DNA of 64,000 nucleotides, taken from the NCBI GenBank assembly GCA_964554015.1, contig CAZKMO010000001.1, positions 22,756-86,755 on the forward strand, written 5' to 3'. Below the pieces are notes generated by a model. The model was not told where the DNA came from. It did not search any database and worked only from the letters and a program-made list of their open reading frames with translations. Position 1 is the first letter of the stretch. Every line of letters begins with the position of its first letter. Below are positions 10,682-63,668 of the stretch, piece after piece. This stretch comes from an uncultured bacterium (lineage in GTDB: Bacteria; Zhuqueibacterota; QNDG01; CAYUAG01). The position numbers and the translations under genes were made by a program.

Positions 10682-10690
10682 AATTCATAT

Positions 10691-13029: not shown

Positions 13030-13032
13030 CGT

Positions 13033-14124
13033 GTGATGCAAAAAACAAAAATAATTAAGTATTTTTATCTGGTTAGAGTATGTATCATAATTGGTTTACT
13101 AAACATAAGTATTACTATTAATTGCTCGAAAAATCCTGCTTCATCAGAAAATAAGGGAAATCGACTCGAGTATGTTGACCCTGAAGAGGTTGGTTATTCA
13201 TCTGAAAAACTCAACCTGGCAAAACAATTTGCAGAACAAAGCGGCTATGCTGCCGTAATGGCACTATGTGAAGGAAAAGTGTTCTTTTCCTGGGGTGAGA
13301 TAACTAAGAATTATTTATGCCATTCTATCAGAAAGCCATTTTTAAGTGCACTTTACGGTATTTATGTTGAGCAGGGTACTATCAACCTCGATGCAACCCT
13401 GGAAGAGCTAAATATTGATGATATCTCCCCCAGCCTGACTGAGGCTGAAAAACAAGCAACCGTAAGAGATTTATTGAAATCCCGCTCCGGTGTCTATCAT
13501 GAAGCTGCTTCGGAAGATCCTGTCATGATTGCAACCCGCCCGGAACGAGGAAGCCATCCTCCGGGCACTTTCTATTATTATAATAATTGGGATTTTAATG
13601 TACTGGGTACCATTTTTGAACAAGAAACCGAAACCAAGATATTCGAGGAATTCAACAACAAGATAGCCGGGCCTGTGGGTATGGAAGATTTTGCGATTGA
13701 AAACTGTTATTATAAGTATGAGATGGAAAAATCCCAGCATCCGGCCTATCATTTCAGGATGAGTGCAAGGGATATGGCAAGATTCGGGGTACTGTATCAA
13801 AAAAATGGAATGTGGAAGGAAAACCGGATAATTTCCCGTGCCTGGATTGATGAAAGTACAACCGCCTATTCACCTGTAGATAGCGCTTCCGGTATAGGGT
13901 ATGGGTATATGTGGGATGTTTTCCCGGAAGGTTCCTTAATAGCCACTCTAATCGGTTATTCAGGCTATTATCATACCGGCGTAGGTGTTCATGTCTTAGT
14001 GATTGTACCAGAACTAAATTTAGTACTGGTGGAACGGTACGATACAGACAGCGATTGGATTGATCCCGGAGAAGTAGGCATAGAGCTGGGGTTGATGATA
14101 ATAAATTCCCGTATAACTAACTAA
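13033..14124 (+). CDS. Beta-lactamase-family serine hydrolase (lipoprotein or secreted).
   Basis: There is a signal peptide. An SxxK motif (HSIRKPF) is present. The tail is rich in YxN/Gly, as in penicillin-binding-fold esterases. Confidence 0.5.
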   Translation: MMQKTKIIKYFYLVRVCIIIGLLNISITINCSKNPASSENKGNRLEYVDPEEVGYSSEKLNLAKQFAEQSGYAAVMALCEGKVFFSWGEITKNYLCHSIRKPFLSALYGIYVEQGTINLDATLEELNIDDISPSLTEAEKQATVRDLLKSRSGVYHEAASEDPVMIATRPERGSHPPGTFYYYNNWDFNVLGTIFEQETETKIFEEFNNKIAGPVGMEDFAIENCYYKYEMEKSQHPAYHFRMSARDMARFGVLYQKNGMWKENRIISRAWIDESTTAYSPVDSASGIGYGYMWDVFPEGSLIATLIGYSGYYHTGVGVHVLVIVPELNLVLVERYDTDSDWIDPGEVGIELGLMIINSRITN

Positions 14125-14181
14125 AGACTAATTTCTATTTAAACCAAAGATTCCTTATTTCTTAAAAAAGGGAGTATATCA

Positions 14182-14649
14182 ATGAGTAATCTTTTATATG
14201 TTCTGTTAATTTCGGCTGTAATATTCTGCACCTGTGTTGAAAATAAAAATTCGGAAGACCTTGCCCTTCAGGCAATCCAAGAACTGCATGCAAAAGATAA
14301 GGTTGCTTCTTTTCAAGGTGATATAAGGACCTTATTGTCTCTCTTTGCAGAGGATGGTATAGTGATTCCAGCGGAAGGTGAAATTATTAGAGGAAAAGAG
14401 GGGCTAAAAAAAATGCTGGAAAAAAATTTTAAAGACCAGAAAGACTATACGTTGATAGAATATAAGCATGATTTTAAAGAAATAAAAGTTATGGGTGAAT
14501 ATGCCTATGAATGGGGTCTATACAGTGGCGCCTATAAATCCAAAAAAAATGATAAAATATTAACCGGAAGCGGTAAACTGATGAGAATATTAAAACGACA
14601 AAAAGATGGAAGTTGGAAAATATCAAGATCGATTTGGACTGTTGATTAA
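14182..14649 (+). CDS. DUF4440/SnoaL-like (NTF2-fold) protein, secreted.
   Basis: There is a signal peptide. The C-terminus GSGKLMRILKRQKDGSWKISRSIWT is typical of the DUF4440 fold. Confidence 0.45.
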   Translation: MSNLLYVLLISAVIFCTCVENKNSEDLALQAIQELHAKDKVASFQGDIRTLLSLFAEDGIVIPAEGEIIRGKEGLKKMLEKNFKDQKDYTLIEYKHDFKEIKVMGEYAYEWGLYSGAYKSKKNDKILTGSGKLMRILKRQKDGSWKISRSIWTVD

Positions 14650-14950
14650 TAACATACAGTTTAATAACCGATAATAAAATCTTAAAAGCAAATTTAGCAG
14701 TAATAGTATCGTTTTGATTTCATTCAGAGGGAATATTTCATTGGGAAAAAATTGAAATAATATACGTAAGTCAAAAATCTTATTAAAAAAATATCTGTGA
14801 AAATATATTTTTGGGGAACTTTAAAAAAATTTCTAACGTTAAATGATGGGTATTATTTAATAAAAATTATTAAATAAGTAAGAATACTTAGTAATGGAAG
14901 TTATTAAATATAAGATTTTTTAGAGTAAATAAGCTCATTAAAGGCAATAT

Positions 14951-16861
14951 GTGAAAAAAAAATCTAAAAATATTAATTCTAAATTACCGTTTTCCAGACG
15001 AGAATTCATAAAAAAAACAGCCGGAGCCACTACTGGCTTACTTTTTTCTCCCTTTTTTGTTACAAAATATATAAAAGAACCCCGGAGAGTATCAGACAAT
15101 TCCCGGGTTGTTATGGTCAAGGATGATAGTGCCATTCCTACATCCGTTATTGATGAGAATGTTGTACAGGTTATGATGGATGTTGGTATCTGTGATCTTA
15201 CTGATATCGATAATGTGGGGGAAGCCTGGAAAAGTCTGTTCCCTGATCTCACTTTAAATTCTGTTATTGGCATTAAAGTAAACTGTATTAATAAATCGCT
15301 TTCCAGTCATCCCCGGGTTGCCAATGCCATTGTGCAGGGATTAAAACGTATGACGGTTGAAAATGAATCCTTTCCGGAAAATAATATAATAATCTGGGAT
15401 AGAACTAACCGGGAATTAAGAAATGCAGGATACACTATCAATACTAGTGATACTGGAGTCCGGTGTTTCGGAAGTAACCAAAATGGCGTCGGCTATTCCA
15501 AAAAATCCTATAATATTCATGGCAGCACCCAGAAACTCAGCCGGATCCTCACCGAATCCATTGATTATTTGATCAATCTCTCTGTATTAAAAAATCACGG
15601 AACTGCCGGCGTGACTTTAAGTATGAAAAATCATTACGGCACCTGCCAACAACCAGGACATATACATGGTAACTATTGTAACCCCTTTATACCAGCCTTA
15701 AATGCACTCTCACCCATCCGGGATAAACAAGTTGTTTGTATAAACGATGCCCTTATGGGAATTATTTCAGGGGGACCGGGAGGACCTCCTCAAATCACTC
15801 CCCAAAGTCTGATTCTGAGTACCGATCCTGTAGCTCTGGACAGCATAGGTGCTCAATTACTGGAGGACAACGGATGTAAATCCTTATATCGAGCTGCCTA
15901 TATTCACTCTGCTTCCCAAGAACCATATAATCTTGGTATAGATGATCCGGAGCAAATCGACTTGGTAACCATTACCTCGCCCTCTGTTCCCGGCTCGGTT
16001 TTTCTGGACCAGACCACTGTTACCCAGGGAGAGATGGTCAAGGTGAACTGGTCAGACTGGCCGGGAAAGGTGAACATCGCCCTTTATAAGGATGGCACTT
16101 TCTGGATGTATGCAGTTAAGGTCACAGACAGCAGCGGTACCCTGGATTTGGATACCACTGATTGGGAGATCAGAAATGATTACCAGATTAAGATCATGCT
16201 GCAGGCCAATGAAAATATCAGCCAGTCTTCTAGTACTTTCTCTGTTACCTCTCCATTTTCACCCGGCTCGGTTTCTCTGAACCAGACCACTGTCACCCAG
16301 GGAGAGTGGGTCAAGGTGAACTGGTCAGGCTGGCCGGGAAAGGTGAATATTGCCCTTTATAAGGGCGGCACTTTCTGGATATATGTTGCTAAGGAAGCAG
16401 ACAGCAGCGGTACCCTGAATTTGGATACCACTGATTGGGAGATCAGAGATGACTACCGGATCAAAATCGTTCTTTGTGCGGATGAAAATATCAGTCAATT
16501 CTCAAGTACCTTCTCTGTGGAAGAACCCACCGGGGAAACAGATCCCACCACCATAGAAGAACAAAATGGAGGAAAGATTCCGAAACGATTTCGACTATAT
16601 CAGAATTATCCCAATCCCTTCAATGCCAGCACTATAATTGCTTATCAATTAATGAAGTCATCCTACGTTGATCTGGGCATATACAATGTAAAAGGTTCAT
16701 TATTAAGGAGAATGGTGCATCAGCGACAGAATACTGGATTTCATCGCCTTAGATGGGATGGGACCAATACATTCGGCGTACCAGTTCCCAGTGGAATTTA
16801 TATAGTCCGTCTTACAGTGGATGGATACAGCCAAGCCAGAAAAATGCAGTTGCTGCGTTGA
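14951..16861 (+). CDS. DUF362-domain protein with a Tat signal peptide, two Kre9/KNH-like repeat domains and a T9SS C-terminal sorting domain.
   Basis: The Tat motif SRREFIKK plus a hydrophobic stretch is present. The DUF362-like core (VLKNHGTAGVTLSMKNHYG) is present. Two ~90-aa repeats (VTQGEMVKVNWSDWPGKVNIALYKDGTFW...) are present. The CTD LYQNYPNPFNAST...GIYIVRL is present. Confidence 0.55.
   Translation: MKKKSKNINSKLPFSRREFIKKTAGATTGLLFSPFFVTKYIKEPRRVSDNSRVVMVKDDSAIPTSVIDENVVQVMMDVGICDLTDIDNVGEAWKSLFPDLTLNSVIGIKVNCINKSLSSHPRVANAIVQGLKRMTVENESFPENNIIIWDRTNRELRNAGYTINTSDTGVRCFGSNQNGVGYSKKSYNIHGSTQKLSRILTESIDYLINLSVLKNHGTAGVTLSMKNHYGTCQQPGHIHGNYCNPFIPALNALSPIRDKQVVCINDALMGIISGGPGGPPQITPQSLILSTDPVALDSIGAQLLEDNGCKSLYRAAYIHSASQEPYNLGIDDPEQIDLVTITSPSVPGSVFLDQTTVTQGEMVKVNWSDWPGKVNIALYKDGTFWMYAVKVTDSSGTLDLDTTDWEIRNDYQIKIMLQANENISQSSSTFSVTSPFSPGSVSLNQTTVTQGEWVKVNWSGWPGKVNIALYKGGTFWIYVAKEADSSGTLNLDTTDWEIRDDYRIKIVLCADENISQFSSTFSVEEPTGETDPTTIEEQNGGKIPKRFRLYQNYPNPFNASTIIAYQLMKSSYVDLGIYNVKGSLLRRMVHQRQNTGFHRLRWDGTNTFGVPVPSGIYIVRLTVDGYSQARKMQLLR
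15963..16515 (+). repeat. Direct tandem duplication of about 270 bp, two copies at roughly 85-90% identity, inside the DUF362/T9SS gene.
   Basis: Copy 1 begins near 15963 and copy 2 near 16246. Both encode the SP(S/F)xPGSV(F/S)L(D/N)QTTVTQGE... domain. Confidence 0.8.
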
Positions 16862-38694: not shown

Positions 38695-41600
38695 CTATTT
38701 AATGACTGCAATCTTACAAATGACTGCTTTCTCTCTGGAACCGGCATCTGCCTTAACCCGGCAGAAATAAACCCCGCTTTCCTTTCCGGAAATATCCCAC
38801 CTAATTTCATTTTCCGTGTTACCCATGCCGGGGCCGGAAAAGGAATCCACTAATTCCCCCGCCAGATCATATATTTCTATGGATACCTTAGCCTGCTTTT
38901 CCAGACGGTACCTGATATAAGTAAAATTCCCTTTTGCCGGGTTGGGATAGTTATACACCAGATTATCAGGCATAAGATCGGACTTCTCCGGAACAGCAAT
39001 TGGTTTTACTCTGCTCATCCCGGAATTGGCTGCATCGTAAAGATAACTTCCCCAAGGAATCAATTCGGCTGAATAACTGCCGGGAAGATCCCATACAAAC
39101 AACTCTCCCCTTTCCGAAACCGCTGCCATCTCCAGGTCGCCATCCTTATCCAGATCCAACAAAGTAGGTGAACCCGGAATTGATCCGCCCGTGGTCAGGG
39201 GAAAACCGGTTACCATTTCTCCGGAATAATTCCAGGCTTCAATATTCCCTTCAGAGTTGGCAACCACAATATCAATCTTATCATCTCCATTAACATCTCC
39301 CAGCAGGCAGGAAGACAACTCCGCTGTACGGGGAAAATAGGGAAAAGGTGAATAGTCGACATAACTGGCATTGGCGTTAAATCCGTATATCTTATCCTGC
39401 GCTGTAATTACAATCTCACTTATTCCATCCCCGTCAATATCTCCGGCAGCAGGGAAAGAGAGAGAGGAACCGGTTATTTTATCTTCTGTAGTATAATAAT
39501 CATCCTCAAATCTGTCATAAATCAGCAGATTTCCGCTCCGGGAAACAACTGCAGTCAAAGGATAATCTTGTTCTCCCAGATAAGCCGATATGGGATTATG
39601 GAGTTCTCCAGCTTCTGAAAACTGTTTTTCTTTTATCAGAGAACCGGCGTTATCTATAAATATTAGATTAGAGGAAACAGTAACCGCAATAGCCCCCTCC
39701 TCATCAGCCTGACAGATACCGGTGATAGCTTCCTCTCCTGCCTGGTAATCCCATTTAAGAGATCCGGTGCTGGTGAGACTGAAAACTTTCCCTTCTCTGG
39801 TACCAAATATCAAACAGGTATCCGAGGGTGATGTAATTATGTGCAGATTGGTGGAAATCGAAGTTTGATCATTATTCCAGGAAAATACCTTGGTTGCTGC
39901 CAGGCCCCCGCCATTTCCCCCTTCCATACCCCAGCCGGACACGGTTCCGCTCTTATCAGCTATTATAATTTCATCCCGAAAATCTCCATTGATATCAAAC
40001 ACCAGGGGAGAAATGGATATTGTTTCCGAACATTTGATTAATAAAGGAACCTTATAAAAAATAGTATCATGGGTAACCGTCACCCGAAAACCGGTAGAAT
40101 CGGAGGAAAAGGGAGTACCATCCTGGTTCCAGGCAAATATTGCGTGGTCTGAAGCAATGATCAGTTCCCGATTTCCTTCTCCGTTCAGGTCTCCTGTCAG
40201 TACCGGAGAAACCCAGGTGGAGCAGCTCTGAAAATAAGAGGGGAAACCTGGCTGCAGCATATCGGTGGTAAGGGAAAAACTCATCACTGTATCTCTGGGG
40301 GAAAAATCAGTGATCACAATATGGGAATTACCACCCTGGTTTGATCGGGAGTTAGGGAAACTGAAGGGAGTAAACATCACCTTAGTTGTATCATTTACTT
40401 CTTGATTTATCTCATTGTCCTGATACCAGGCATCCTGTAAAACACCGTATTCTGAACCATAACCATAAGAAGTATAACTATATAATTCACCGATATCCTG
40501 AGCCCCATCTGCCTCCTCCAGGTCAACCCCCCGGTGATTCTTATCCGCATTGATCCTATTTTCTTCTATGGTTCTGCGGATCACCTCTTCATCAATATGC
40601 CAGATCAATATACCTGAGCCGGGAAGGCCGTAATCATACTCTTCCACTGAAGTTATAACTCCATACCTTTCCATCTCAATAGTTCCATCGGATCGGAATA
40701 TTACTTGTCCGCCGTTAGCGGTTCTTCCGGTAGTTATACTGTCTCCGTTGGTATCATACTGGCGGTTTTCAATCAGAAAATATTCATGATCATTAATGGG
40801 CACTTTATAAATTTTATTGGATTCAGTTGCTTTGGAGCAGGCTATTTTTATATTATTCTGGTGAGTAATTGTTATTGGTTTTTCCCAACCCATTAATACT
40901 TTGCTGAAAGCACAGGGCTCGGCTGGTATCAATCCTATATAATTTCCGGATCCCTGATCCATTAATCCCCACATACCAATACCGGAATGACCGGTCTCCG
41001 TATTCCAGAGAGCAGGCAGACCCAGCTGGAATCCATACATAATACTCATAGTACCCAAAAGACCTATTTCATAAAAATATTGACTGTCTTCCTGATTTTG
41101 GGTTTCAGGAAGGATAATTCCTTCTTGTACCCGGAAACTGCTGTTCTCAACTTCAATACCCGGAAAATTCGGATCTCCTGGGGCAAGATATCTGCGTAAT
41201 TTATCCAGATCTAAAAAGGCGGAAGAAATATCATGAGGTGTGGGATCATAATCAAAAGCAAAATCATTTCCTACTCCGGCATGAAAAATAATATAGGAAT
41301 CATAATGGGAGAACTCAGCACCTGCTGCATCAGCAGCATGGATTGCATCACCAAAAAGTTCAACCAATCCTCTATCAACTCCGGTATCACTATCTTCTGA
41401 GCTATAATAGGACATGGCATGATTAAGTTTCAGTATTTCCGGAAATACTGTACCACTTAAAATCAGCTTTCCTCCGGAAACCGCTTTATAGTAGGAACTC
41501 AGGGCTGTAAGTTGATTTTTAAAATAAGATTGGTTATGAGGTGACGGATCAATGACAGTATCTTCAACGGTGAGCATAAATGTACCATCTCCAGTAGTAA

Positions 41601-41859
41601 GGGAATCATCTTTTTTAATAAATTCAACCATAAAGGCCAAAATATTAACTGTATCACTATTATTAATTGTAAAATTTCTATTCTTTTCCGAGAAAAAGAC
41701 TTTTTCTCCCTTCCAGGAAAGAAAAGATGATTTCACTAAATTTTTTCTGGAAATAGAGCATTTTTTAAAATCGTATTTTATATTATTAACCGAAGCAGAA
41801 ACGATGCTTGAGAATATAATGAAAATATTGATAAACAATTTACAGATACTACTTTTCAT
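38695..41859 (-). CDS. Large FG-GAP/VCBS-repeat surface protein with a T9SS C-terminal sorting domain.
   Basis: There is a signal peptide. Repeated FDINGDFRDEIII, GDIDGDGISEIVI, GDVNGDDKIDIVV and LDLDKDGDLEM (FG-GAP calcium loops) are present. The CTD YNYPNPAKGNFTYIRY...GVYFCRV is present. Confidence 0.6.
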   Translation of the reverse strand: MKSSICKLFINIFIIFSSIVSASVNNIKYDFKKCSISRKNLVKSSFLSWKGEKVFFSEKNRNFTINNSDTVNILAFMVEFIKKDDSLTTGDGTFMLTVEDTVIDPSPHNQSYFKNQLTALSSYYKAVSGGKLILSGTVFPEILKLNHAMSYYSSEDSDTGVDRGLVELFGDAIHAADAAGAEFSHYDSYIIFHAGVGNDFAFDYDPTPHDISSAFLDLDKLRRYLAPGDPNFPGIEVENSSFRVQEGIILPETQNQEDSQYFYEIGLLGTMSIMYGFQLGLPALWNTETGHSGIGMWGLMDQGSGNYIGLIPAEPCAFSKVLMGWEKPITITHQNNIKIACSKATESNKIYKVPINDHEYFLIENRQYDTNGDSITTGRTANGGQVIFRSDGTIEMERYGVITSVEEYDYGLPGSGILIWHIDEEVIRRTIEENRINADKNHRGVDLEEADGAQDIGELYSYTSYGYGSEYGVLQDAWYQDNEINQEVNDTTKVMFTPFSFPNSRSNQGGNSHIVITDFSPRDTVMSFSLTTDMLQPGFPSYFQSCSTWVSPVLTGDLNGEGNRELIIASDHAIFAWNQDGTPFSSDSTGFRVTVTHDTIFYKVPLLIKCSETISISPLVFDINGDFRDEIIIADKSGTVSGWGMEGGNGGGLAATKVFSWNNDQTSISTNLHIITSPSDTCLIFGTREGKVFSLTSTGSLKWDYQAGEEAITGICQADEEGAIAVTVSSNLIFIDNAGSLIKEKQFSEAGELHNPISAYLGEQDYPLTAVVSRSGNLLIYDRFEDDYYTTEDKITGSSLSFPAAGDIDGDGISEIVITAQDKIYGFNANASYVDYSPFPYFPRTAELSSCLLGDVNGDDKIDIVVANSEGNIEAWNYSGEMVTGFPLTTGGSIPGSPTLLDLDKDGDLEMAAVSERGELFVWDLPGSYSAELIPWGSYLYDAANSGMSRVKPIAVPEKSDLMPDNLVYNYPNPAKGNFTYIRYRLEKQAKVSIEIYDLAGELVDSFSGPGMGNTENEIRWDISGKESGVYFCRVKADAGSREKAVICKIAVIK

Positions 41860-42015: not shown

Positions 42016-43074
42016 CTAAAATCCGAGACTAAGAGAAAATCTCATGGTATCAGAGAGGGGATGTCCTTTTTCAGCAGCCACATAAGCAAAATCAAACCTG
42101 TAGGTATTATATTGAAGACCGGCACCAAAGGTAGGAAACTTTACTTTGCCAATTTCATCATAATAGTAGCCGGTTCTTAAAAATATCATATCACTATAAA
42201 CATATTCTAATCCCATACAGGTAATAAGCTCTTGCAATTGTTCATCTATGGGTTTATCTGTCCAACTGGTAAAAATGGCTTTATAAAAAGCATCCGATTC
42301 ATTCCCTTTCTTGACTACCATAAGTTTATTAGTATCAAGAGTTAAAGTTAGTCTATTATATTTTTTATCCAAGACTTTGTAGGCAAATCCCAATTTTAAA
42401 TTTGTCGGCAAGGGATCTGCTTGGGCAGCATCAACATAAGCTATTTTGGGGCCCATATTGGCAAGATTTGCTCCAAATGATAATCCTTTGATAAATCCAA
42501 TTTTCCAGAGAACTCCCACATCAAAAGCAAAGGCATTACCAGAACCACTGCCCTTCTCGGTTCCGACATCAACCCAATCAGGAGCAAGCATACTTTGGAT
42601 GTAACGTACATTAACACCCAATCCAACATTATCGGTTACCTTGGTTGCATACCCCAGGGTTATAGCAAAATCATAACTTTGGAATCTGCCTCTTTCTTCC
42701 CCGGTTTCACCTGTCCATACCTGCTCTCCCATATTCAGATAGGTAACATTAGCAGCGATAGTCCCTCCCAAGCTCTCCACATAATGCCGGTAAGAAGCAA
42801 ATTCATAAAACATATCATCAACTAATCCCGGAAGCCATTTACAATGCATAAAAATAATCTCTTTACCTTTCAGAAAGGCAAGTCCACCCGGATTCCAATA
42901 TATGGCTGTTGCATCATCGGCAAGGGCTACAAATGATTCTCCCATACCCGAAGCCCGGGCTCCTGGTGAAATTAATAGAAACAGCACCGCAGCTTCACTT
43001 ACAGCAAATACATTAGATGCCATAATCAAGCTAAATACGAAAACCAATAAAATTATTGTTAATTTTTTCATCAA
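42016..43074 (-). CDS. FadL/OMPP1-family outer-membrane beta-barrel protein. It may be a T9SS PorV-like shuttle.
   Basis: There is a signal peptide. The N-terminal hallmark GARASGMGESFVALADDATAIYWNPGGLAF is present. It ends in aromatic ...SLGF. It is adjacent to T9SS cargo genes. Confidence 0.5.
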   Translation of the reverse strand: MMKKLTIILLVFVFSLIMASNVFAVSEAAVLFLLISPGARASGMGESFVALADDATAIYWNPGGLAFLKGKEIIFMHCKWLPGLVDDMFYEFASYRHYVESLGGTIAANVTYLNMGEQVWTGETGEERGRFQSYDFAITLGYATKVTDNVGLGVNVRYIQSMLAPDWVDVGTEKGSGSGNAFAFDVGVLWKIGFIKGLSFGANLANMGPKIAYVDAAQADPLPTNLKLGFAYKVLDKKYNRLTLTLDTNKLMVVKKGNESDAFYKAIFTSWTDKPIDEQLQELITCMGLEYVYSDMIFLRTGYYYDEIGKVKFPTFGAGLQYNTYRFDFAYVAAEKGHPLSDTMRFSLSLGF

Positions 43075-43656
43075 TAATACCTCCCTAAAATAAAAAAACC
43101 GAACTTTTCAAAAAAATATAACCCGTATCATTAGTTATATTTTTTTAGTAATCCGGTCTGATGCAATAATTCGTTGCAGGCCATGGATACAGCTTAACTA
43201 TAATAGAAAAAAATTGTTTTATCCATCAGACCTATAACGAATTCTTATACGTAAACCTCTTATCTTTATTTAAAATTTCATTTAATATATAAATTTATGA
43301 TTTCAATGTCAAGTTTTTTTTAACTCTTTTTTAGTATGAAATTAAAACCTAAATATACCTTTATAAAAAAGACTGCAAAAAAAATGCCATCATATATTAA
43401 ATCACTAAAATCCTCATTAGGTGAGATATTTCCCTGTTACCAAGCCGGCCTTTATAGCTCTGGAGCCGAATAATACAGGCATAGCAATAACTTCACACAT
43501 ATATTTTGATTCACCGTGAAAACAATCAAATAAAACTTCACCCTGGTAAATAAATTGTATACCGATAATAAAAAAATAAAAAATTATATCCATCCCACCT
43601 CCATTTACTTGAATAAATAATAAAAAATCAGTACTTTAAAAAAAATATAAAAATCT

Positions 43657-55328: not shown

Positions 55329-55718
55329 ATGACTAAAGATAAAAAAATTATTAAAAATTTCCTACAACAGGTTCTGGGCTGCCAGTGTCCGGAAAAGGTT
55401 TTCCACAATATACAGTGGGGGAATAAAAACCAGATTCTGGAGATAACTGTATCTAATCAACTGCTGATCAATATTTTTTTGGAACCCTTAAAAGAATTGA
55501 ATAAAAAACACATCATTGATGTACTTAAAGTGGGACAGAAAAAAAGAGATTATAAAAATTTTAACAGATTTCGGTTAGTGATTCCTTCCCATCAGGTAGC
55601 AGAAATGCAAAAACAATATAATCAAATAATAAAAAAAATTTTCCCTCAGGATAACAAAATCCATCTGCATATCGTAGAAAATAAACAGTTAAAAAATATT
55701 TTTAGTATTATCCGATAA
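55329..55718 (+). CDS. Hypothetical protein of 129 aa.
   Basis: This is an ORF only. It is Lys-rich and has no recognisable motif. Confidence 0.3.
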   Translation: MTKDKKIIKNFLQQVLGCQCPEKVFHNIQWGNKNQILEITVSNQLLINIFLEPLKELNKKHIIDVLKVGQKKRDYKNFNRFRLVIPSHQVAEMQKQYNQIIKKIFPQDNKIHLHIVENKQLKNIFSIIR

Positions 55719-55740: not shown

Positions 55741-56388
55741 TTAATTTTTTTGCTTGCTTTCCTGTTCCGCCTTCTCTATCTGGGGTTTAAGATATTTTTC
55801 AAAACATTCGGGACAAACACCATGACTGAATTGAAGCTCGGAATGATTGGAAATATAGGTTTCAACCTGTTGCCAGTAATTTTTATCATCTCTTACTTTT
55901 TTGCAGTAGCAACATATGGGTAAAAGACCCTGTAGTATTTCTACTTTATTCAGCGCCTCTTGTAATTTTCGAACATGATGATTAAGGTTCGCCTCCAAAT
56001 TAATAACCCGTAATCCCACATTAATCCTGGCTCGCAGTTCCTTAAGATTGAAAGGTTTAGTCATGTAGTCATCCGCACCAGCATCCAAACCACTCACGAT
56101 ATTTTCTAATTCGGATAAAGATGTTAAAATAATTATATAGGTGTAATAATCACATTTCAGCTTACGAATTTTCCTGCATAATTCTATGCCGTCCATCTCA
56201 GGCATCATCCAGTCAATAATGGCAAGATGGGGCAGATCTGATTGCACCTGTGCCCAGGCTTTTCCCCCATCTTCTACCGCTGTAACCGTATATCCCCACT
56301 TCTGAAGGGACGAAGTTACTAATTTTCTGGAAATAACATCATCCTCAGCTACCAATATTTTAAGGTCTTTCTTTTTGTAAAAACTCAT
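55741..56388 (-). CDS. Response regulator: a receiver domain fused to a Cys-rich C-terminal module (CCYCKK...W...HGVCPEC).
   Basis: The REC motifs [19 protein letters not shown] and K in TKPF are present. The C-terminal 60 aa carry C-x-C-x2-C...H-x2-C-x2-C. Confidence 0.6.
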   Translation of the reverse strand: MSFYKKKDLKILVAEDDVISRKLVTSSLQKWGYTVTAVEDGGKAWAQVQSDLPHLAIIDWMMPEMDGIELCRKIRKLKCDYYTYIIILTSLSELENIVSGLDAGADDYMTKPFNLKELRARINVGLRVINLEANLNHHVRKLQEALNKVEILQGLLPICCYCKKVRDDKNYWQQVETYISNHSELQFSHGVCPECFEKYLKPQIEKAEQESKQKN

Positions 56389-56771
56389 ATTAATTTCTCA
56401 ATAGTTTTGATTAATATGTCGTGACTAACGGTTTTAACTAAAAACTCATCTGCACCGCAATGCTTGGCTAGATCCCTGTCTTTATGCATATCCCGCGATG
56501 TTAATACAATAAATGGAATATTCCTATAATTCTTATCATATTTTAAAAACCTGCAAATTTTATGCCCGTCCATTTGAGGAAGCAATAAATCACAAATAAT
56601 CAGATCCGGTTTCTTTGCCTTTGCCAGATTAAACCCGGTAAGTCCGTTTTCAGCTGAAATCACCCTATACCCACTGGACTCCAGTTTTAATCGTACTATC
56701 TTTAAAAATGAAGGATTATCTTCAATAAATAATATTAATGGTTTCTGTAAGCTTTCCATCTTTTTCTCCAT
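56385..56771 (-). CDS. Single-domain response regulator (CheY-like receiver).
   Basis: The REC motifs ILFIEDN, LIICDLLLPQMDG and the K in VKT are present. The start was set at internal ATG 56771, which is an inference; the ORF track extends to 56816. Confidence 0.6.
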   Translation of the reverse strand: MEKKMESLQKPLILFIEDNPSFLKIVRLKLESSGYRVISAENGLTGFNLAKAKKPDLIICDLLLPQMDGHKICRFLKYDKNYRNIPFIVLTSRDMHKDRDLAKHCGADEFLVKTVSHDILIKTIEKLI

Positions 56772-56787
56772 TTTAAGCAATAAGTAC

Positions 56788-58260
56788 TTAATCCAATATT
56801 CCTTCCACTTTGGCAACTAATTTTTCATTATCTATTGGTTTTTCCATTACAGGTAATGTGCTTTCTCCATTCAAATCATTTAGTCTTTTATAATCAATCT
56901 CCACCCCACTAATTATAATAGCCGGAATAGAAATTTTTTCTTTTTTCATTTGTTCCAGAATTTCATAACCGTCAATTTCAGGGAGCATTAAATCCAGAAT
57001 GACCAGAGATGGATTTTGAGATTTAATTTTCTCAAGCGCACTCTTCCCATCATAAGCAGCTATGAATTTGTAGCCTTTATATTTCAGTAATTTCCCTACT
57101 ATATCCACAATTTTCTCAGAATCATCAACTACCAATACGGAAGGAAACTCTGCTTTCTCCAAAGTGAAATAAAAGGTTGTTCCTTTTCCCAATTCTGAAT
57201 CTACAGTAATGTTTCCTCCATGCTTTTCCACTAAAGCTTTGGAAATCGCCAGTCCCAGACCAGTTCCCTTGTATCCAGAGCCTTGGGTTCTGTCAAACTG
57301 TTCAAACCGTGAAAATAATTTCGGTACATTCTCTTTGGCTATTCCTGTCCCGGTATCAGACACCCAGCAGGTTACATATTTTTCCTGATCTTTAAAACCT
57401 AAACTTATTTCTCCTTTTAAAGTAAATCTTATACTGTTACTCACTAAATTGGTAAAAATCTGAATAATCCTATCTCGGTCAGCATATATATTCAAAGAAT
57501 TATCAGGAATAGTAAGCGCAAACTTCAAACCCTTTTCCGATACTTGTTGAGTAAAATCCCTCTCTATTTTTTTTGCCACCGCACATAGATCCACTGAAGA
57601 TTTGTGAATACTCAATTTACCAGCTTCAATCTTTGCCGCATCTAAAAGATCAGTTACTAACCGATTCAGCCGGTCAATGTTTTCCAGTGAATCACTGAGT
57701 ATATCCTGCTGCTTTTCATTCAATTCTCCGATAACTCCATCCAGGCATAGAGATATACCGCCTCGCATAACAGCGATCGGTGTTCTCAGTTCATGGGTAA
57801 CGGTTGAAATAAATTCATCTTTCAAATTATCTAATTCTTTGAGACGTTCAATATGGGAATTAAGCTGATTCTCCAACCCTAAAATTCTTTGTCCCACCTC
57901 GATACGTGCCATTAATTCCTGTGTATCGAAGGGTTTACTGATATAATCATCGGCACCGGCAGACATGCCTTTTGAGAGATCTTCTTTTTGCCCCTTAGCG
58001 GTTAGAAAAATAATATAAGTATATTTATTATCATTTTTATTACGGACTTTCTTACACACTTCAACTCCATCCATCTCCGGCATCATCCAGTCTAAAATAA
58101 TCAACTGAGGTGCATTTTTTTTCTTAAGTATCTCCCATGCCTCCAATCCGTTAACTGCATCAGTTACCAAAAATCCCCGCTTCTCTAAAACTCTCCGTAA
58201 TATTTTTCTTGAAATAGGATCATCTTCAGCAATTAATATTTTTGTTTTATTTTCAGACAT
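56788..58260 (-). CDS. Hybrid histidine kinase: REC-HisKA-HATPase_c-REC.
   Basis: The N-terminal REC (ILIAEDDP...[11 protein letters not shown]) is present. The H-box is THELRTPI. The G-boxes are [10 protein letters not shown]. The C-terminal REC is VLVVDDS...[11 protein letters not shown]. Confidence 0.75.
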
Positions 58261-60784
58261 TTACATATTCCTTCCCTTCCGTGCAGAAAAAATCCTTTAT
58301 CAGCTGTAACTGTTTTTCCAATTCCTGCAAAACATGAAGACTTTTCTCCTGGTCAAAATCAGAATCTATTTTTTCTAACTCAAAAGCAAGATCGTATGCT
58401 TTTTGAACGCCAAAATTACTGATTGCACCTTTGAAACTATGAGCTCTTTCCTTCAGTTTTTCAACCTCACCTGCCTGAATTAATTTCTCTAATTCGGTTA
58501 CCTGTCGGGGATATTCATCTAAAAAAGATTCGACCATTTCTTCTAACAAATCTCTGTCTCCATCCAAACGTTTGAGTAAATCCGTTATATTTATCTTTAC
58601 TACCTTTGCATTAGTAGAATGTTTAATTTCTGGATTTGCTTTCTCACTTTGAAATTCTGAACCATTGATTACTTTATTTATTATCTTATAAACATCCTCG
58701 GATTTAACAGGTTTGGAAATATATTCATCCATACCCGCAGAGATGCATTTTCCCCGATCCTTGGCCAGGGCATGGGCGGTCAAGGCTATGATGGGAATAT
58801 GGCCACCTTTTTCTTTCTCATATTTTCTGATTAATTTTGTGGATTCAAAACCATCCATTTGCGGCATCTGTACATCCATAAAAATTAAGTCATATGCATT
58901 CTGCTTAACTTTCTCCAGTGCCTCTTTACCATTTCCTACCTGGCTTACTTCCCATCCCTTTTTACTTAATAGAGTATGAACAACTCTGCTGTTAATAGGA
59001 TTATCCTCAGCCAGCAGTATTTTCAAATTCTCAGGAAGATTATTTTCCCTATATGATAATCTTTTCTTTTGTGATTGCTTATAACCGATAATTTCAACTT
59101 TTTGTTTACTGTTAAGTTCATAGATCATTGCCTTTATTAAATTAGATTTTTTGACCGGCTTTATAAGAAAACTAGAGACCCCCAAATCTTTCTTCTTTTT
59201 ATTTCTTTCCGGTCTATCTGCAGAAGTTAATATGATTACCGGAAGTTTGGCAAACCTCTTATCCTTACGCAATTCTTCTGTAAATTCTAAACCATTCATT
59301 TCTGCAATGTTCAAATCACATAGTACAATTGAATATTTTTCCCCCTTCTTATCGTTTTGAGTTAATGTTTTTAATCCAAGTATACAATTATCTTTCAGGG
59401 TCGGAAGCATCCCTAAGCTGGTTACCATCTCTTTTAATACAATTCTATTTGTTTTATTATCATCTATAATAAGAACCTTCTTATTTTTAAGTATTTTAAA
59501 ATCCTCGGATGATGTTGATTTTTTACCTAACTGTTTTTTAAATTGAGCTGTAAAATGAAATATACTTCCCGGTCCGTCACTCGAAATGCTACTATTTTTT
59601 ACTGGACTTTCCACCCATATATCACCATCCATTAAGTCAACCAGTTTGGATGATATAGCCAGTCCCAATCCTGAACCACCATATTTACGAGTGGTAGAGC
59701 CATCGGCTTGTTCAAATACCTCAAAAATAAACTTCTGCTTATCTGGTGATACCCCTATACCGGTATCCTGAACCATAAAATGGAGTTTTGTGTAATCCTG
59801 TTCATTCTCTTCAGAATCGATCCTCAGTATAATTTCTCCCTGGTTGGTAAATTTAATTGCATTATTTATAAGATTGATCACTATTTGACCTAACCGGTGA
59901 GGATCACCGATTAATCTATCCGGAACCCCGGGGAGTACATGAACAATCAATTCCAGTCCTTTCTCCGAGGCTTTAGCGGAAAATGTTTGCACTATCTCCC
60001 CGATTGTATCTCTTAACATAAATGGTAGTGATTCCATTTCCAGTTTTCCGGCTTCAATTTTGGAATAGTCTAAAATATCGTTAATAATAACCATTAATAA
60101 ATCTGCGGAAACTTTTACTCCTTCCAGATAATCTTTTCTATCCTCATCGGATTCAGCCTCCAAAGCAAGTTCCGTCATTCCAATAATACCATTCATAGGA
60201 GTACGTATTTCATGACTCATGTTGGCCAGAAATTCACTCTTGGCGCGGGTTGCAGCCTCGGCTTTACGTTTGGCAATATCTAACTCGTCAATCATATGAA
60301 ATAACCTTGAGGTATTTTGCTCTTCTTTTTCATGGGCCAATTGCAGATCTTTAGCTTGTTTCCTTAATTCCTCTTCGGTTCGTTTTCTTTGTTCAATTTC
60401 TTTTTTAAGAATTTTATTTAAGGCTTCCAGATCCGCTGCTTTTTCTTCAATTCCATTATACAAATCCGATGTCTTTTCATCAAAATATTTTATTCGATAA
60501 AGATATATTCCATAAGCAACTCCCACTATTAATAAAAACATTAATCCTATAAACCAATGAGTTTGCCAGAAAGGTGGAGTGATATTTATTGCTAAATCTG
60601 AATATCCATTACCCGACTCATTATAAACAACCATAATTCTCTCATAATCCACATCATTTGCCTTACAATTTTCAGATACCATTAAAATTATGTTCAATAG
60701 AACTGCAATCCATACTGCTAAAATTTGAATTTTCTTTAAAGAAAATAAATTACAGTACATGTTCTTCCCACTTATTTTCCGCAA
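58253..60784 (-). CDS. Membrane-anchored hybrid sensor histidine kinase: TM-coiled coil-HisKA-HATPase_c-REC-REC-HPt.
   Basis: The TM segments and the H-box [10 protein letters not shown] are present. The G-box is [10 protein letters not shown]. Two REC domains are present ([10 protein letters not shown]...; [10 protein letters not shown]...[11 protein letters not shown]). The HPt motif is [11 protein letters not shown]. Confidence 0.75.
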
Positions 60785-61529
60785 AATAATCTTTTACATG
60801 AATCATCTCTTCTTTTAATCTTTTAAATACTTCTAAGGCAGCATCCATTCGCGATTCTTTTCCCAGATTCTCAAGCTCAACTACAAGTTCATAAGCTCGC
60901 TCTGCTCCAAAACTAGCTACAGCACCTTTAAAACTATGAGCTCTCTTCTGAAGCTGACGGGAATCCTTCTTTTGGATCATTTCTCCTATTCCTGAAAGTT
61001 GTTTGGGAAATAAGGTAAGAAAATCCTCAATTAACTCCTGAAAAAGTTCCTTGTCACCTTCTACCGTTTCCATTGCCTTAGATAGATTAATACAAAAATC
61101 ATCATTCGTCCAACTGCTACTTTCACGTACTACTTTACTTATGGTCTGCCAAAGTTCTTCAACTTCAATTGGCTTTGAAATAAAAGCATCCATTCCTGCT
61201 TCTATACATTTATCCATATCCTCTTTCATAGCTGAAGCAGTTAAAGCAATTATGGGAATATGTTCTCCGGTAGTTTTTTCTTGTTTTCTAATCTCTTGGG
61301 TGGTTTCCAAACCATCCATAAGCGGCATTTTAGCATCCATTAAAATTAGATCAAAATATTCACGTTCCAAGCCACTCAATACTTCTTTTCCATTTTCAAC
61401 CGAGGTTACCCTAAATCCTTTTTTCTTTAATATGGTCTCTATTACTATTTTATTTATGGAATTATCTTCTGCTAATAAAATTTTTAATGATTTTTCCGGA
61501 AAAGGCATTACATTATTATTTGATTTCAT
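60750..61529 (-). CDS. Response regulator receiver + HPt phosphotransfer protein.
   Basis: The REC motifs [11 protein letters not shown] and [13 protein letters not shown] are present. The HPt motif is [11 protein letters not shown]. Confidence 0.7.
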
Positions 61530-61583
61530 TGTCTTACCCTTTATTTATTTTTTTTAAGTTGACCTTTTATAATAAATTGATAC

Positions 61584-62045
61584 TTAAAACTCATCGGTTA
61601 GGGTATAGATTATATTTATTTTTTTATTTTTTGTGTTTACCATTTCAGAAGATATATTATAATTTATTCTGCACTCTCCAGAATCATTCGCATTCCAAAT
61701 TAAAACATTTTTAATTTTGGGGACCATAGTTATAAGTTTCATTTCACTATCCTGACCTTTTTTTGTTAATCCTATACTGCATCCTTTATATATTGTATCC
61801 GTTGTGACTGTAATTTTTTTACTTCTATCGGATAGATGCCATTTTAAGGTAATATCATTGGATATATTCTTTCCCCTTACATCTTTTGATTGAGACAAAC
61901 TTTGATTTTCTTTTATAAAAAATTCATTCCTGCTAATTATTTTTATCCGAATTGAATGTGAACATATATCCTCAGCTCCGACGTCCAGCAGGAAATCGAA
62001 TAAAGTAAACAAAAATAAAAATATAATTAAAAGAAAACGTCTCAC
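61584..62045 (-). CDS. Small secreted hypothetical protein inside the phosphorelay operon.
   Basis: It has a signal peptide and conserved Cys residues. There is no known motif. Confidence 0.35.
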   Translation of the reverse strand: MRRFLLIIFLFLFTLFDFLLDVGAEDICSHSIRIKIISRNEFFIKENQSLSQSKDVRGKNISNDITLKWHLSDRSKKITVTTDTIYKGCSIGLTKKGQDSEMKLITMVPKIKNVLIWNANDSGECRINYNISSEMVNTKNKKINIIYTLTDEF

Positions 62046-62071
62046 CCCAAGAACCTATACAATAGATATTA

Positions 62072-62446
62072 TTAATTTAAACTCTCCAAAACGGATCTTA
62101 ATTTATTAAAGGTAAAAGGCTTAAGAAGCACATCTTCTACATTATTCTCATTAAACTTATGTTCATTGAATATGTAATCACTACCCATTCCAGTAACCAG
62201 AACTATTTTTTGTTCTGGTTTATATTTGCGTAGTTTCTGTATTAAATCCCAACCAGATATACCGGGTAAAAGCAAATCTACCATCACCAGATCGAATGTT
62301 TTTCTTTTAAATTTCTGTAAAGCATCCGTGCCAGTTTCAGATACTGTTGTATGGTATCCTAACTGGGAAATCATTTTTTCCAAAACTTCCAGGACAATTC
62401 TCTCGTCATCTACAATTAAAATCCGTTTCATTAATACCCCCTGCAT
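62072..62446 (-). CDS. Single-domain response regulator (CheY-like receiver).
   Basis: The REC motifs ILIVDDERIV, LVMVDLLLPGISG and the K in LKPF are present. Confidence 0.65.
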   Translation of the reverse strand: MQGVLMKRILIVDDERIVLEVLEKMISQLGYHTTVSETGTDALQKFKRKTFDLVMVDLLLPGISGWDLIQKLRKYKPEQKIVLVTGMGSDYIFNEHKFNENNVEDVLLKPFTFNKLRSVLESLN

Positions 62447-62938
62447 TAATATATACTAACATCACTACTGTCGTTAAAAGCAATCAACATGCCATATCAG
62501 TGAAAATCATTAAATATTAACATTATTCTTAGTTACTTAAGTACTTGAAAAACAATCCTTGACTTTAAAAATTTATTATCCTGAAATTGTTAATTTCTTC
62601 ATAAAATAAATTAAATATAAACCGATTATTTTTTAACTATCTTCAGGTAATAATTACTTTCTTTGATCAATATATAATTGTTATGAAAAATGTGATTAGA
62701 AAGGAAGATAAATGATGATAAAATTTCACATTTATCTCTGTGGTGGGATTTCTTTCAAATCTTAGAATCAATTAATAAAATTTAAATGGAATGATTAAAT
62801 AATTTCGAAATTTATATATAGATAAAAATCAGTATTGAAATTTAAAATTTTTTAAAAACGTAAAATATAACAAGTAATTTCATACACAGCTATTATAATT
62901 ATTAATAAAAATTATGTATGCTTATTTACTGTGAAATC

Positions 62939-63178
62939 TTACTCATCCTGAATTCCACCTGAATGGAAAATCTGTCGGATATTATCAATATTGATATTAG
63001 AAGCAGCTCTTTTGTTTTCTTCAACTATTCTTTGATAAATTTCTTCTCTATACACAGTTATTTCTCTGGGAGCTTTAATACCAACCTTAACTCCTCTTCC
63101 CTGAACAGAGAGAATAGTGAGTTTTATATTCTCTCCTAAAAGAATACTTTCTCCAACTTTTCTTGCTAATACAAGCAC
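62939..63178 (-). CDS. csrA: Carbon storage regulator CsrA.
   Basis: The sequence [48 protein letters not shown] is a near-canonical CsrA sequence. Confidence 0.9.
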
Positions 63179-63191
63179 CGTTCACTCCATT

Positions 63192-63668
63192 TTATTTAAT
63201 TGAATTAACAATTTTATGACGAATTAAATAATTCGAATCAGTTAAAATTATCTGTCTTCCCCACTTATCCGTTCTAGATAAGAGTACAGGAGCACGCATA
63301 TTAACCGTAACATCATCCTGAGAATTTCCGATGGTAACAATAGTATAAATGTATTCCCAATCCTTGACATCCTTAATATTAGGTTTATAATCCGGTATTA
63401 AAATTTTTGGATTAATAAGTGGAAAAAATAAATTTGGATCATCTATTGAAATTAGAAGTTTAAAAGGGCGATATTTTTCTCCACTCCAGATTATATAATC
63501 TTTAAACTCTTTATAGCCATAAAGACCTTCCTGAAAAGTATAAATGCTATCATCCGTATATTCAATTTTACCAACTTGAGTATCTAGATAATAAACATCC
63601 TTTTCTTGTTGTCTTTTTTTTTGTTTCTCTTTTTTTAACATTATTGTATCCTTTAAAATATTCCCCAT
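63192..63668 (-). CDS. fliW: FliW-like CsrA-antagonist/assembly factor.
   Basis: It lies immediately upstream of csrA in the same orientation. Its size and the FxEGLxGYxEF motif (FQEGLYGYKEF) fit FliW. Confidence 0.55.
   Translation of the reverse strand: MGNILKDTIMLKKEKQKKRQQEKDVYYLDTQVGKIEYTDDSIYTFQEGLYGYKEFKDYIIWSGEKYRPFKLLISIDDPNLFFPLINPKILIPDYKPNIKDVKDWEYIYTIVTIGNSQDDVTVNMRAPVLLSRTDKWGRQIILTDSNYLIRHKIVNSIK

Follow-up and report, generated by a model that had tools for sequence, protein, structure and literature searches.

A 64,000-nt stretch of DNA from an uncultured bacterium (contig CAZKMO010000001.1; referred to at its full length as the window) carries a block of seven minus-strand genes, designated g1–g7 in the order in which they are read, which encode receiver (REC), histidine kinase (HK) and histidine phosphotransfer (HPt) domains and one small secreted protein. 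We propose, with a probability of roughly 55%, that the block is one operon, most likely with a sigma-54 promoter, for a branched multistep phosphorelay in which a short cysteine-containing module (Cys module) at the C-terminus of g7 serves as a partner-docking output. As a phosphorelay with an unorthodox kinase, the operon varies a known theme (BarA/GacS, TorS and ArcB), and the relay as such is unremarkable. The novelty lies in the terminal regulator, which belongs to a very large and apparently unnamed family of output domains that spans phyla and recurs beside a dedicated kinase partner.

Most output types of two-component systems (TCSs) are regarded as known, among them DNA binding, cyclic di-GMP (c-di-GMP) turnover, CheY-like proteins and phosphatases. 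Here, the sole candidate output of a well-formed relay is a ∼45-residue module that is more conserved than its receivers, is found in ∼20,000 clusters and is missing from Pfam, NCBIfam and the PDB. Knowing its partner would give a mechanism to thousands of proteins annotated just as 'response regulator' or 'PAS protein', and its target could point to a new currency shared across bacterial signalling. The kinase pairing and the gene-loss series described below offer a concrete minimal system consisting of g4, g3 and g7.

Gene content and domain architecture

An earlier description of the block, made from the letters and the open reading frames (ORFs) alone (the sequence-only reading), had listed seven minus-strand genes with their domain orders, including two HPt modules. 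An ORF check and Pfam bear this out: all seven ORFs are real, with the stop coordinates as first given, and Hpt is found in both g3 and g4. The genes and the core of the module are as follows (TM, transmembrane segment).

62072..62431, minus strand: g1, 119 aa; lone REC (Pfam Response_reg, 4.9e-23); accessory
61584..62045, minus strand: g2, 153 aa; secreted/periplasmic, lineage-specific protein with a signal-like N-terminus and without a Pfam domain
60750..61529, minus strand: g3, soluble REC-HPt (Pfam REC 4.5e-29, Hpt 9.3e-12)
58253..60760, minus strand: g4, membrane unorthodox hybrid kinase, TM-loop (∼35–40 aa)-TM-coiled coil-HisKA-HATPase-REC-REC-HPt (Pfam; hydropathy)
56788..58260, minus strand: g5, soluble kinase REC-HisKA-HATPase-REC (Pfam); accessory branch
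56385..56759, minus strand: g6, 124 aa; lone REC (Pfam)
55741..56388, minus strand: g7, REC (Pfam 1.4e-28), helical linker and Cys module; terminal response regulator
55804..55926, minus strand: Cys-module core of g7, residues 155–195, LLPICCYCKKVRDDKNYWQQVETYISNHSELQFSHGVCPEC

By Pfam, the seven proteins together contain 8 REC domains, 2 HPt domains and 2 kinase cores; the first count of about nine receivers is corrected to eight by both Pfam and alignment. The acidic pocket, phospho-Asp, Thr/Ser and Lys are intact in 8/8 aligned receivers. HisKA and HATPase were matched with E-values of 1.1e-20 and 1.2e-25 in g4 and of 6.8e-18 and 3e-28 in g5, the H-boxes of the two kinases read SHEIRTP and THELRTP, and the Hpt domain of g4 (1.7e-10) shares with that of g3 the motif RAHSFKGA, which contains the conserved His. 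With the kinase, REC and HPt residues all in place, the motifs support the His-Asp-His-Asp relay that had been suggested. Neither Pfam nor NCBIfam revealed a DNA-binding or enzymatic output in the seven proteins, the NCBIfam matches being to generic TCS families only, and helix–turn–helix (HTH), GGDEF, EAL, HD-GYP, PP2C and AAA+ domains were not found when isolated regions were searched at relaxed thresholds. The earlier view that the block has no recognizable DNA-binding output thus survives the domain annotation of both whole proteins and isolated regions, which uncovered no hidden GGDEF or HTH domain. In a domain scan, REC, HK, HPt and Cys-module matches within the 64-kb window were confined to the block, which is therefore a discrete signalling island rather than a chance cluster in TCS-dense DNA.

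The Cys module of g7

The receiver of g7 is followed by ∼90 C-terminal residues without Pfam assignment. A search with this region gave dozens of close matches, with E-values down to 4e-32, none of which is covered by Pfam there. The consensus of the module is LLPICxxCKK[IV]RDDxNYWQQVExYIxxHSxxxFSHGICPxC, with substitutions elsewhere in QQ[VI]E and F[ST]HG[IV]CP; four Cys are invariant and a His is conserved, and g7 has all invariant and near-invariant residues of the REC-Cys family core. For comparison, 80 loci from GTDB genomes that had been picked for carrying the module were fetched (these and the contigs of relatives are numbered with the prefix L where they need to be told apart). The two CxxC motifs occur at one ungapped offset in 74/74 full cores from the fetched loci, their spacing being fixed at 29 residues (offset 37 from the leading Leu), and these 74 cores have a mean pairwise identity of 67% across phyla with no indels.

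At least 591 matches of the module were confirmed in GTDB species genomes. Among the matches listed are Acidobacteriota, Planctomycetota, Verrucomicrobiota, Rokubacteria, Cloacimonadota, Desulfobacterota, Nitrospirota, Gemmatimonadota, Armatimonadota, Chloroflexota, Spirochaetia and others, with more than 12 phyla overall. When 1.84 billion representatives of 50%-identity clusters were searched exhaustively with a profile, 20,012 of them matched at E ≤ 1e-10, a count for which the profile also held the receiver tail, the threshold being taken to need the module itself. The module has no match in Pfam, NCBIfam or the PDB, by sequence or by fold, and a description of it was not found in Creative Commons-licensed PMC papers and bioRxiv, although one may exist elsewhere.

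The AlphaFold2 model of g7 (pLDDT of 87 overall) displays a confident REC domain and a long helix (residues 115–155). In the models, the module consists of a β-hairpin bearing the first CxxC, a helix and a last helix with the second CxxC at its N-terminus; our reading of the DSSP string is a treble-clef-like fold made up of a knuckle and a helix N-terminus. The CxxC…CxxC pattern and the modelled secondary structure indicate that the four Cys probably bind zinc. According to Foldseek, the REC domain resembles OmpR/PhoB receivers (34–43% identity), and the only match that reaches through the helix is RssB of P. aeruginosa (3f7a, 176 columns). The winged-helix domain Trans_reg_C is absent from g7 (Pfam), and the likeness to OmpR/PhoB is limited to the receiver.

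A short REC-linker-Cys protein of ∼200–215 aa is encoded at 57/80 GTDB loci; elsewhere the module ends proteins with PAS, PAS-GAF, MASE3, VUPS, Reg_prop/Y_Y_Y-TM or CheB-CheR-PAS N-termini. Since it stands C-terminal to REC or sensor domains, in the slot usually taken by a kinase transmitter, GGDEF or HTH domain, we regard it as an output domain. Both the input and the output of the relay had been considered unclear in the sequence-only reading; the output can now be assigned to the Cys module of g7, a widespread unnamed domain, and for the input there is a candidate only, described below.

Docking of the module on a conserved partner or ligand appears likelier than sequence-specific DNA binding. 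Nearly all of its surface positions are conserved over more than 12 phyla without indels, whereas domains that recognize DNA change along with the sites they bind; its core is slightly acidic (mean net charge −1, range −5 to +2); it also ends the membrane-anchored sensors with MASE3, VUPS or Reg_prop/Y_Y_Y-TM; and an unbiased search around the 80 loci found no recurrent non-TCS neighbour as a candidate target, the neighbours being TCS genes and antisense ORFs. These properties make it unlikely that g7 is a transcription factor in an ordinary TCS with a regulon and the module an unrecognized zinc-finger DNA-binding (or RNA-binding) domain, despite the arguments that speak for this explanation. 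Most one-component and response-regulator outputs bind DNA, and C4 zinc modules are often nucleic-acid binders; the sub-threshold Pfam matches of the module are mostly zinc fingers or ribbons, some of which come from transcription factors (e.g. Rua1_C and TFIIB ribbon). Furthermore, HalOD2, an analogous REC-associated CxxC…CxxC domain, has been predicted to bind DNA or RNA (Galperin et al., PMC5847659).

Further arrangements of the module were seen among the fetched loci and proteins. Fusions among proteins P0180, P0286, P0299, P0211 and P0291 comprise tandem REC-Cys-REC(-Cys), REC-Cys-PilZ (PilZ being a c-di-GMP receptor domain) and REC-Cys-kinase. In L004, a relative described below, a 69-aa ORF at 10647–10856 (plus strand) that is hardly more than a Cys module (VICSYCKRVKYENDYWRRV…FSHGICPECYEKHLKPQ) lies just downstream of g7, with an FAA-hydrolase gene after it; neither is present in the window. 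In L056, from a deltaproteobacterial metagenome-assembled genome (MAG), a 1000-aa CheB-CheR-PAS-Cys protein (12497–15499, minus strand) is encoded within 5 kb of a REC-Cys ORF, so that several carriers of the module share one neighbourhood.

A probable, recurrent kinase partner

An HPt-terminated gene lies directly upstream of the REC-Cys gene in 12 of the 57 REC-Cys loci, mostly with frames overlapping by 1–37 nt, and directly downstream in three of the 57. The upstream genes encode eight HK-REC-REC-HPt proteins, one REC-HK-REC-REC-HPt protein and three HPt proteins. Ten such kinases were analysed with Pfam: REC-REC-HPt was present in all ten and HisKA-HATPase-REC-REC-HPt in nine, the tenth (L061) being an N-terminally truncated ORF with a partial HATPase in which HisKA was not detected. 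Their sensor parts vary (CHASE8-HAMP, CHASE4-HAMP-PAS, PAS repeats or REC). The cytoplasmic core of g4 aligns end to end with these kinases, at 38–43% identity over 620–670 aa, and of the 16 best matches of g4 among the 47 kinases in those loci, 12 adjoin a REC-Cys gene; no comparable counterpart of g5 was found among the same 47. In P0291 (1443 aa), REC-Cys is fused to PAS-GAF-PAS-HisKA-HATPase-REC-REC-HPt. Because g4-type kinases repeatedly abut REC-Cys genes, and in one case are fused to the REC-Cys protein, the core of the relay most likely runs from g4 (with g3) through HPt to g7.

The receivers of the block are also related to one another. The g3 REC is 57% identical to REC2 of g4, and g3 matches the REC2-HPt tail of g4 in 107/249 residues; g3 may therefore be a free-standing duplicate of the g4 relay module. 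REC1 of g5 is 51% identical to the g7 REC, with the similarity continuing through the helical linker; this paralogy suggests that the two are alternative acceptors of one donor. The remaining receiver pairs are 23–43% identical.

Relatives and gene loss

Proteins identical to those of the cluster were found on short metagenome contigs only. The enolase encoded in the window is identical to that of an NCBI MAG; its closest counterparts with a named source come from candidate division KSB1 (72%) and Calditrichota (67–69%), and the PorV and T9SS-tail proteins of the window fit a member of the FCB group. The cluster itself is present in three independent relatives: L004, L008 (a GTDB MAG) and L090 (GCA_037381465.1). 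The gene order in L004 is flgN-fliW-csrA-g2-g3-g4-g5-g6-g7, without g1, and the identities are 45% (g2), 65% (g3), 64% (g4), 71% (g5), 68% (g6) and 83% (g7). L008 contains the end of g4 followed by g5-g6-g7, with g7 78% identical, and its contig stops before g2. In L090, g2, g3, g4 and g7 are intact (69, 90, 79 and 93% identical, respectively), g1 is frameshifted, g5 is gone and g6 is reduced to a 3′ remnant with an in-frame stop, so that the intact g7 starts ∼210 nt past the stop codon of g4. This layout, with g4 followed almost directly by g7, mirrors the cross-phylum arrangement of kinase and REC-Cys genes.

Among the relatives, g2, g3, g4 and g7 are retained wherever the contig permits a check (g2 in L004, L006/L007 and L090), while g1 is intact in the window and in L006/L007, frameshifted in L090 and absent in L004. 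The comparison of gene content thus shows a putative core, g2-g3-g4-g7, to which g1 and g5 + g6 are accessory. The joint loss of g5 and g6 in L090 suggests that they work as a pair, and g6 is probably the partner of g5. The co-conservation of gene order that the sequence-only reading proposed to examine therefore holds in part: the cluster is kept in relatives, but some of them lack g1, g5 or g6 or have only decayed copies, and the relay is not an indivisible seven-gene unit, as natural gene loss leaves the g2-g3-g4-g7 core. The best-conserved gene of the cluster is g7 (78–93%), which equals or exceeds most of the flanking housekeeping (biosynthetic) genes. Evolution is fastest in g2 and in the ∼64 N-terminal residues of g4 (TM1 and loop); the g4 N-termini of the window and of L004 can be aligned only from TM2 onwards.

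The candidate sensor: g2 and the g4 loop

The hydropathy profile of g2 indicates a hydrophobic signal-like segment at residues 1–25. Homologues are rare (four among 5.8 billion proteins), and Cys28 and Cys125 are invariant. A g2-anchored search for further whole clusters found none in GTDB species genomes and the same contig only in JGI metagenomes. Hydropathy places the two TM segments of g4 at residues 4–32 and 64–91; the short periplasmic loop noted earlier is thus real, but it comprises about 35–40 aa instead of ∼45. The loop differs strongly between relatives (∼40 aa here compared with ∼75 aa with four Cys in L004). A role of g2 as a periplasmic adaptor or co-sensor is plausible: it is retained in relatives, carries a signal peptide and a pair of invariant Cys, and shares its fast evolution with the g4 loop. 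Its restriction to this lineage weakens the idea. Together, g2 and the short, fast-evolving g4 loop would be the best candidate for the sensor.

Two sub-threshold matches of g2, to the lipocalin-like Pfam family GH43_C (E = 0.003) and to heart fatty-acid-binding protein (FABP) in the PDB (E = 0.1), hint at a lipocalin/FABP-like β-barrel, which, if real, would point to a small hydrophobic periplasmic ligand. The juxtamembrane segment of g4 (60484–60568, minus strand; residues ∼50–75) resembles the exit of a Y_Y_Y domain into the membrane, as in LRLEIAPPFWRTWWF of a Reg_prop/Y_Y_Y-TM-Cys protein (L063, 7500–8213; motif PPFWQTHWF versus PPFWRTWWF). Pfam Y_Y_Y gave no match in g4 when isolated regions were searched at relaxed E-values. 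With this motif as the sole basis and the Pfam result negative, we do not claim that the g4 loop is a remnant of a propeller-type Reg_prop/Y_Y_Y sensor.

Gene starts, putative promoter and probable co-transcription

The ORFs of g1 and g4 as first listed extend over 62072–62446 and 58253–60784, and the maximal ORF of g6 over 56385–56816. The g1 start is most likely ATG 62431, which is preceded by AGGGGG and agrees with the 119 aa given by gene callers; ATG 60760 (g4) and ATG 56759 (g6) were chosen from gene calls on identical metagenome contigs and from ribosome-binding-site context. With these starts the junctions from g1 to g7 are +26, +54, −11, −8, +28 and −4 nt. The sequence-only reading had described overlaps of 4–35 nt and hence translational coupling. 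Overlaps are present at three of the six junctions (g3/g4, 11 nt; g4/g5, 8 nt; g6/g7, 4 nt), where coupling is arguable, and the g3/g4 overlap reaches 35 nt only if g4 uses a TTG start; the other three junctions are gaps of 26, 54 and 28 nt.

The upstream features of the block are as follows.

62475..62497, minus strand: sigma-54-type promoter, 23 nt, ATATGGCATGTTGATTGCTTTTA, with GG at 62492–62493 and GC at 62480–62481
62623..62657, minus strand: conserved upstream block, GTAATTATTACCTGaaGATAGTTAAAAAATAATCG, ∼150 nt upstream of the −24 element
62939–63178, minus strand: csrA (Pfam CsrA, 1.4e-22), context gene upstream of the block
63192–63668, minus strand: fliW (Pfam FliW, 2.5e-24), context gene upstream of the block

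The spacer between csrA and g1 is 492 nt long and AT-rich. It contains a near-perfect sigma-54 −24/−12 element, TGGCATGTTGATTGCT, at 62479–62494 on the minus strand, ∼50 nt before the g1 ATG at 62431, from which a transcription start near 62468 is predicted. The pattern TGGCAY-N5-TTGCW has two matches in the window compared with 0.10 expected. The 23-nt promoter block is identical in L004, L005–L007 and L090, amid diverged intergenic DNA. In L004, which is without g1, the element sits ∼50 nt ahead of g2; it thus keeps a distance of ∼50 nt to whichever gene leads the operon. The upstream block GTAATTATTACCTGaaGATAGTTAAAAAATAATCG stands out in the diverged spacer of L004 and L090 and occurs only once in the window (0 matches expected by chance); it is a candidate enhancer (upstream activating sequence) or architectural-protein site. 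An Rfam scan of the 492-nt spacer gave no credible Csr-type small RNA (sRNA) or other RNA family. In a simple scan, no sequence resembling a terminator turned up on the minus strand within the block. The seven genes are compact enough for co-transcription, which is supported by the single conserved promoter element at the head, the lack of an internal minus-strand terminator-like site in that scan and the junctions of −11 to +54 nt.

Other sigma-54-type elements were noted in the course of the comparison. In L004, elements at 1804–1819 (minus strand) and 2011–2026 (plus strand) precede a divergent M23-peptidase gene and flgN, and the flgN element, ATGGCATATGGTTTGCTTTTA, has the same extended flanks as the relay promoter; this suggests that the flgN-fliW-csrA unit and the relay may be co-regulated through such promoters in this lineage. 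The second match in the window, TGGCATTTTTTTTGCA (43374–43389, minus strand), lies ∼300 nt upstream of a PorV-like gene of the type IX secretion system (42016–43074, minus strand), after which follows a 1054-aa FG-GAP/β-propeller protein with a Por_Secre_tail sorting domain (38695–41859, minus strand). In L056, a sigma-54-type match (7340–7355, plus strand) is found ∼180 nt upstream of the REC-Cys ORF. A general link between sigma-54 and REC-Cys operons was considered and is not convincing, with five consensus matches in the 80 GTDB loci compared with ∼2 by a rough estimate.

Proposed mechanism

In the proposed relay, g4 would autophosphorylate, possibly sensing through g2 and its own short loop, and phosphate would pass from His to Asp to His inside g4 and/or via its soluble paralogue g3. 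The phosphorylated HPt domain would then phosphorylate the OmpR/PhoB-like receiver of g7, which may dimerize through α4–β5–α5 and the long linker helix and so reposition two Cys modules of ∼45 residues each. These modules would dock on a highly conserved partner or ligand encoded elsewhere rather than read a DNA sequence. A side branch would be formed by g5, a receiver-gated soluble kinase, and g6, a CheY-like receiver; as the first receiver of g5 is paralogous to that of g7, the same HPt domain probably feeds g5-REC1 and switches on g5. The remaining gene, g1, would be an additional receiver that the relay can do without and that may serve as a phosphate sink. We tentatively extend this picture further: the module may be a universal bacterial output domain, a zinc-bound dimeric 'plug' that connects many sensors to one conserved hub (a sigma factor/RNA polymerase or the cognate kinase), and kinase plus REC-Cys a phylum-spanning cassette that is wired here into a sigma-54/flagellar-CsrA neighbourhood. 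This broader idea is possible, at somewhat less than even odds.

Several points weigh against the proposed operon and its docking output. A sigma-54 activator (an AAA+ ORF of the GAFTGA type) was not found in the 64-kb window. The module itself is modelled at a pLDDT of 63–77 only, i.e. with moderate confidence. A TCS-domain gene is lacking within 200 nt upstream of 33 and within 200 nt downstream of 43 of the 57 REC-Cys genes, and the kinase association was measured in loci selected for the module, without a genome-wide background rate. Synteny among the relatives runs into flanking housekeeping genes and thus well beyond the cluster, so that conserved gene order alone is weak evidence. The deletion of g5 and g6 in L090, a MAG contig, could in principle be an assembly artefact, but the g6 remnant is interrupted by an in-frame stop and g1 has an independent frameshift, both of which argue against this.

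The module could also be an input, a thiol or metal switch (redox, Zn or Fe-S) on dimerization, with g6 and g1 as the outputs, which would act on the flagellar motor or other proteins in the manner of CheY. Besides the four invariant Cys and the conserved His, this explanation can draw on thioredoxin-like CxxC matches (again below threshold), on an H-x2-C-x2-C pattern that recalls zinc anti-sigma (ZAS) switches, on the flagellar regulators fliW and csrA next door and on a source that appears from the sample series to be salt marsh or anoxic sediment, a setting that makes redox cues plausible. It is nonetheless decidedly unlikely, as the module occupies the transmitter position behind many dedicated sensor domains, g1 is dispensable and L090 has lost g6 yet keeps g7 at 93% identity. 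CheA, CheW and motor-switch genes were moreover counted as absent from the window (the 64-kb domain scan did not test CheW); within the cluster proteins, neither CheA (Hpt-H-kinase_dim-CheW) nor CheW was matched by Pfam or NCBIfam, and both kinases are of the HisKA type. A pile-up of tandemly duplicated, independent TCS genes with partners elsewhere in the genome would account for the local duplications (g3/g4 tail and g5-REC1/g7-REC) and for single genes coming and going among relatives, but is very improbable given the lone conserved promoter element ahead of genes whose junctions are tight or overlap, the lack of further TCS genes in 64 kb, the recurrence of the g4-type kinase/REC-Cys pairing in unrelated phyla and as a fusion, and the fact that g5 has no HPt domain of its own and no other receiver is joined to a candidate output domain.

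Comparison with known systems

The g4 protein shares with BarA/GacS, TorS, ArcB and EvgS the combination of HisKA-HATPase, receiver and C-terminal HPt in one membrane protein and, in the proposed relay, His-Asp-His-Asp transfer to a separate response regulator. Its best NCBIfam matches fall below the equivalog cut-offs (BarA, 507.1 bits versus 890; TorS, 435.1 versus 676.5). Unlike BarA/GacS/TorS, g4 has two receivers between kinase and HPt, no HAMP or PAS domain and a loop of ∼35–40 aa; and whereas the partner of those kinases is a DNA binder of the NarL/FixJ or OmpR type, it is probably a REC-Cys protein here, with no HTH or winged helix in the seven proteins. The nearby csrA recalls the BarA/UvrY-Csr circuit, but this CsrA is of the FliW-partnered type and Rfam gave no Csr sRNA.

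In its working, the operon would come closest to multikinase/HPt networks whose final regulator does not bind DNA (HptB-HsbR, RssB-type). In the HptB network of P. aeruginosa, hybrid kinases act through HptB on HsbR, a non-DNA-binding response regulator with a flagellar/biofilm link. The common feature is several hybrid kinases and an HPt shuttle converging on such a regulator; HptB is a free HPt protein, whereas here HPt is fused to receivers (g3 and g4). RssB-type (REC-helix-PP2C) regulators share REC and a long helix with g7; instead of a PP2C phosphatase or an anti-sigma kinase, the proposed output here is a ∼45-aa Cys module, and there are no partner-switching genes nearby. The Myxococcus Red system (RedCDEF) likewise combines in one operon more than one kinase, receiver-only proteins and internal phosphate shuttling without a DNA-binding output; it differs in having neither HPt nor a Cys module, the likeness is by description only, and relatedness past the general TCS domains is not expected.

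For the module, the closest descriptions concern two zinc proteins. HalOD2 is a C-terminal REC-associated domain of a few halobacteria, with a helical part followed by two CXXC motifs, and is a predicted zinc finger (PMC5847659). Its CXXC spacing is 20–25 residues in few haloarchaea, whereas that of the Cys module is fixed at 29 in bacteria of more than 12 phyla, and the two are not detectably related (no Pfam model matched at E ≤ 1–10). FlgZ/HP0958 of H. pylori consists of a coiled coil and a DUF164 CXXC…CXXC zinc ribbon that binds and protects sigma-54 (RpoN) in a flagellar regulon (PMC3372290). The present block likewise has a sigma-54-type promoter and flagellar regulators adjacent to it. 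The likeness to FlgZ is architectural only: FlgZ has no receiver. DUF164 and zf-HC2 (ZAS) are absent even from the sub-threshold Pfam matches of the module.

Neighbouring genes

The earlier placement of csrA-fliW ∼500 nt away agrees with the Pfam assignments, which put both upstream of g1. They also lie next to the relay cluster in L004, L006/L007 and L090; as only close relatives with shared synteny keep this arrangement, it is on its own no proof of a functional link. A search for sequence beyond the window end, aimed at flgN, rpoN or an activator, gave exact fliW or csrA products on short contigs only. On the other side of the block, a conserved 129-aa hypothetical protein (55329–55718, plus strand) without a Pfam or NCBIfam family is encoded convergently with g7, the stop codons being 22 nt apart; it is ∼70% identical in L004 and L008 and always lies between UbiA and the relay cluster.

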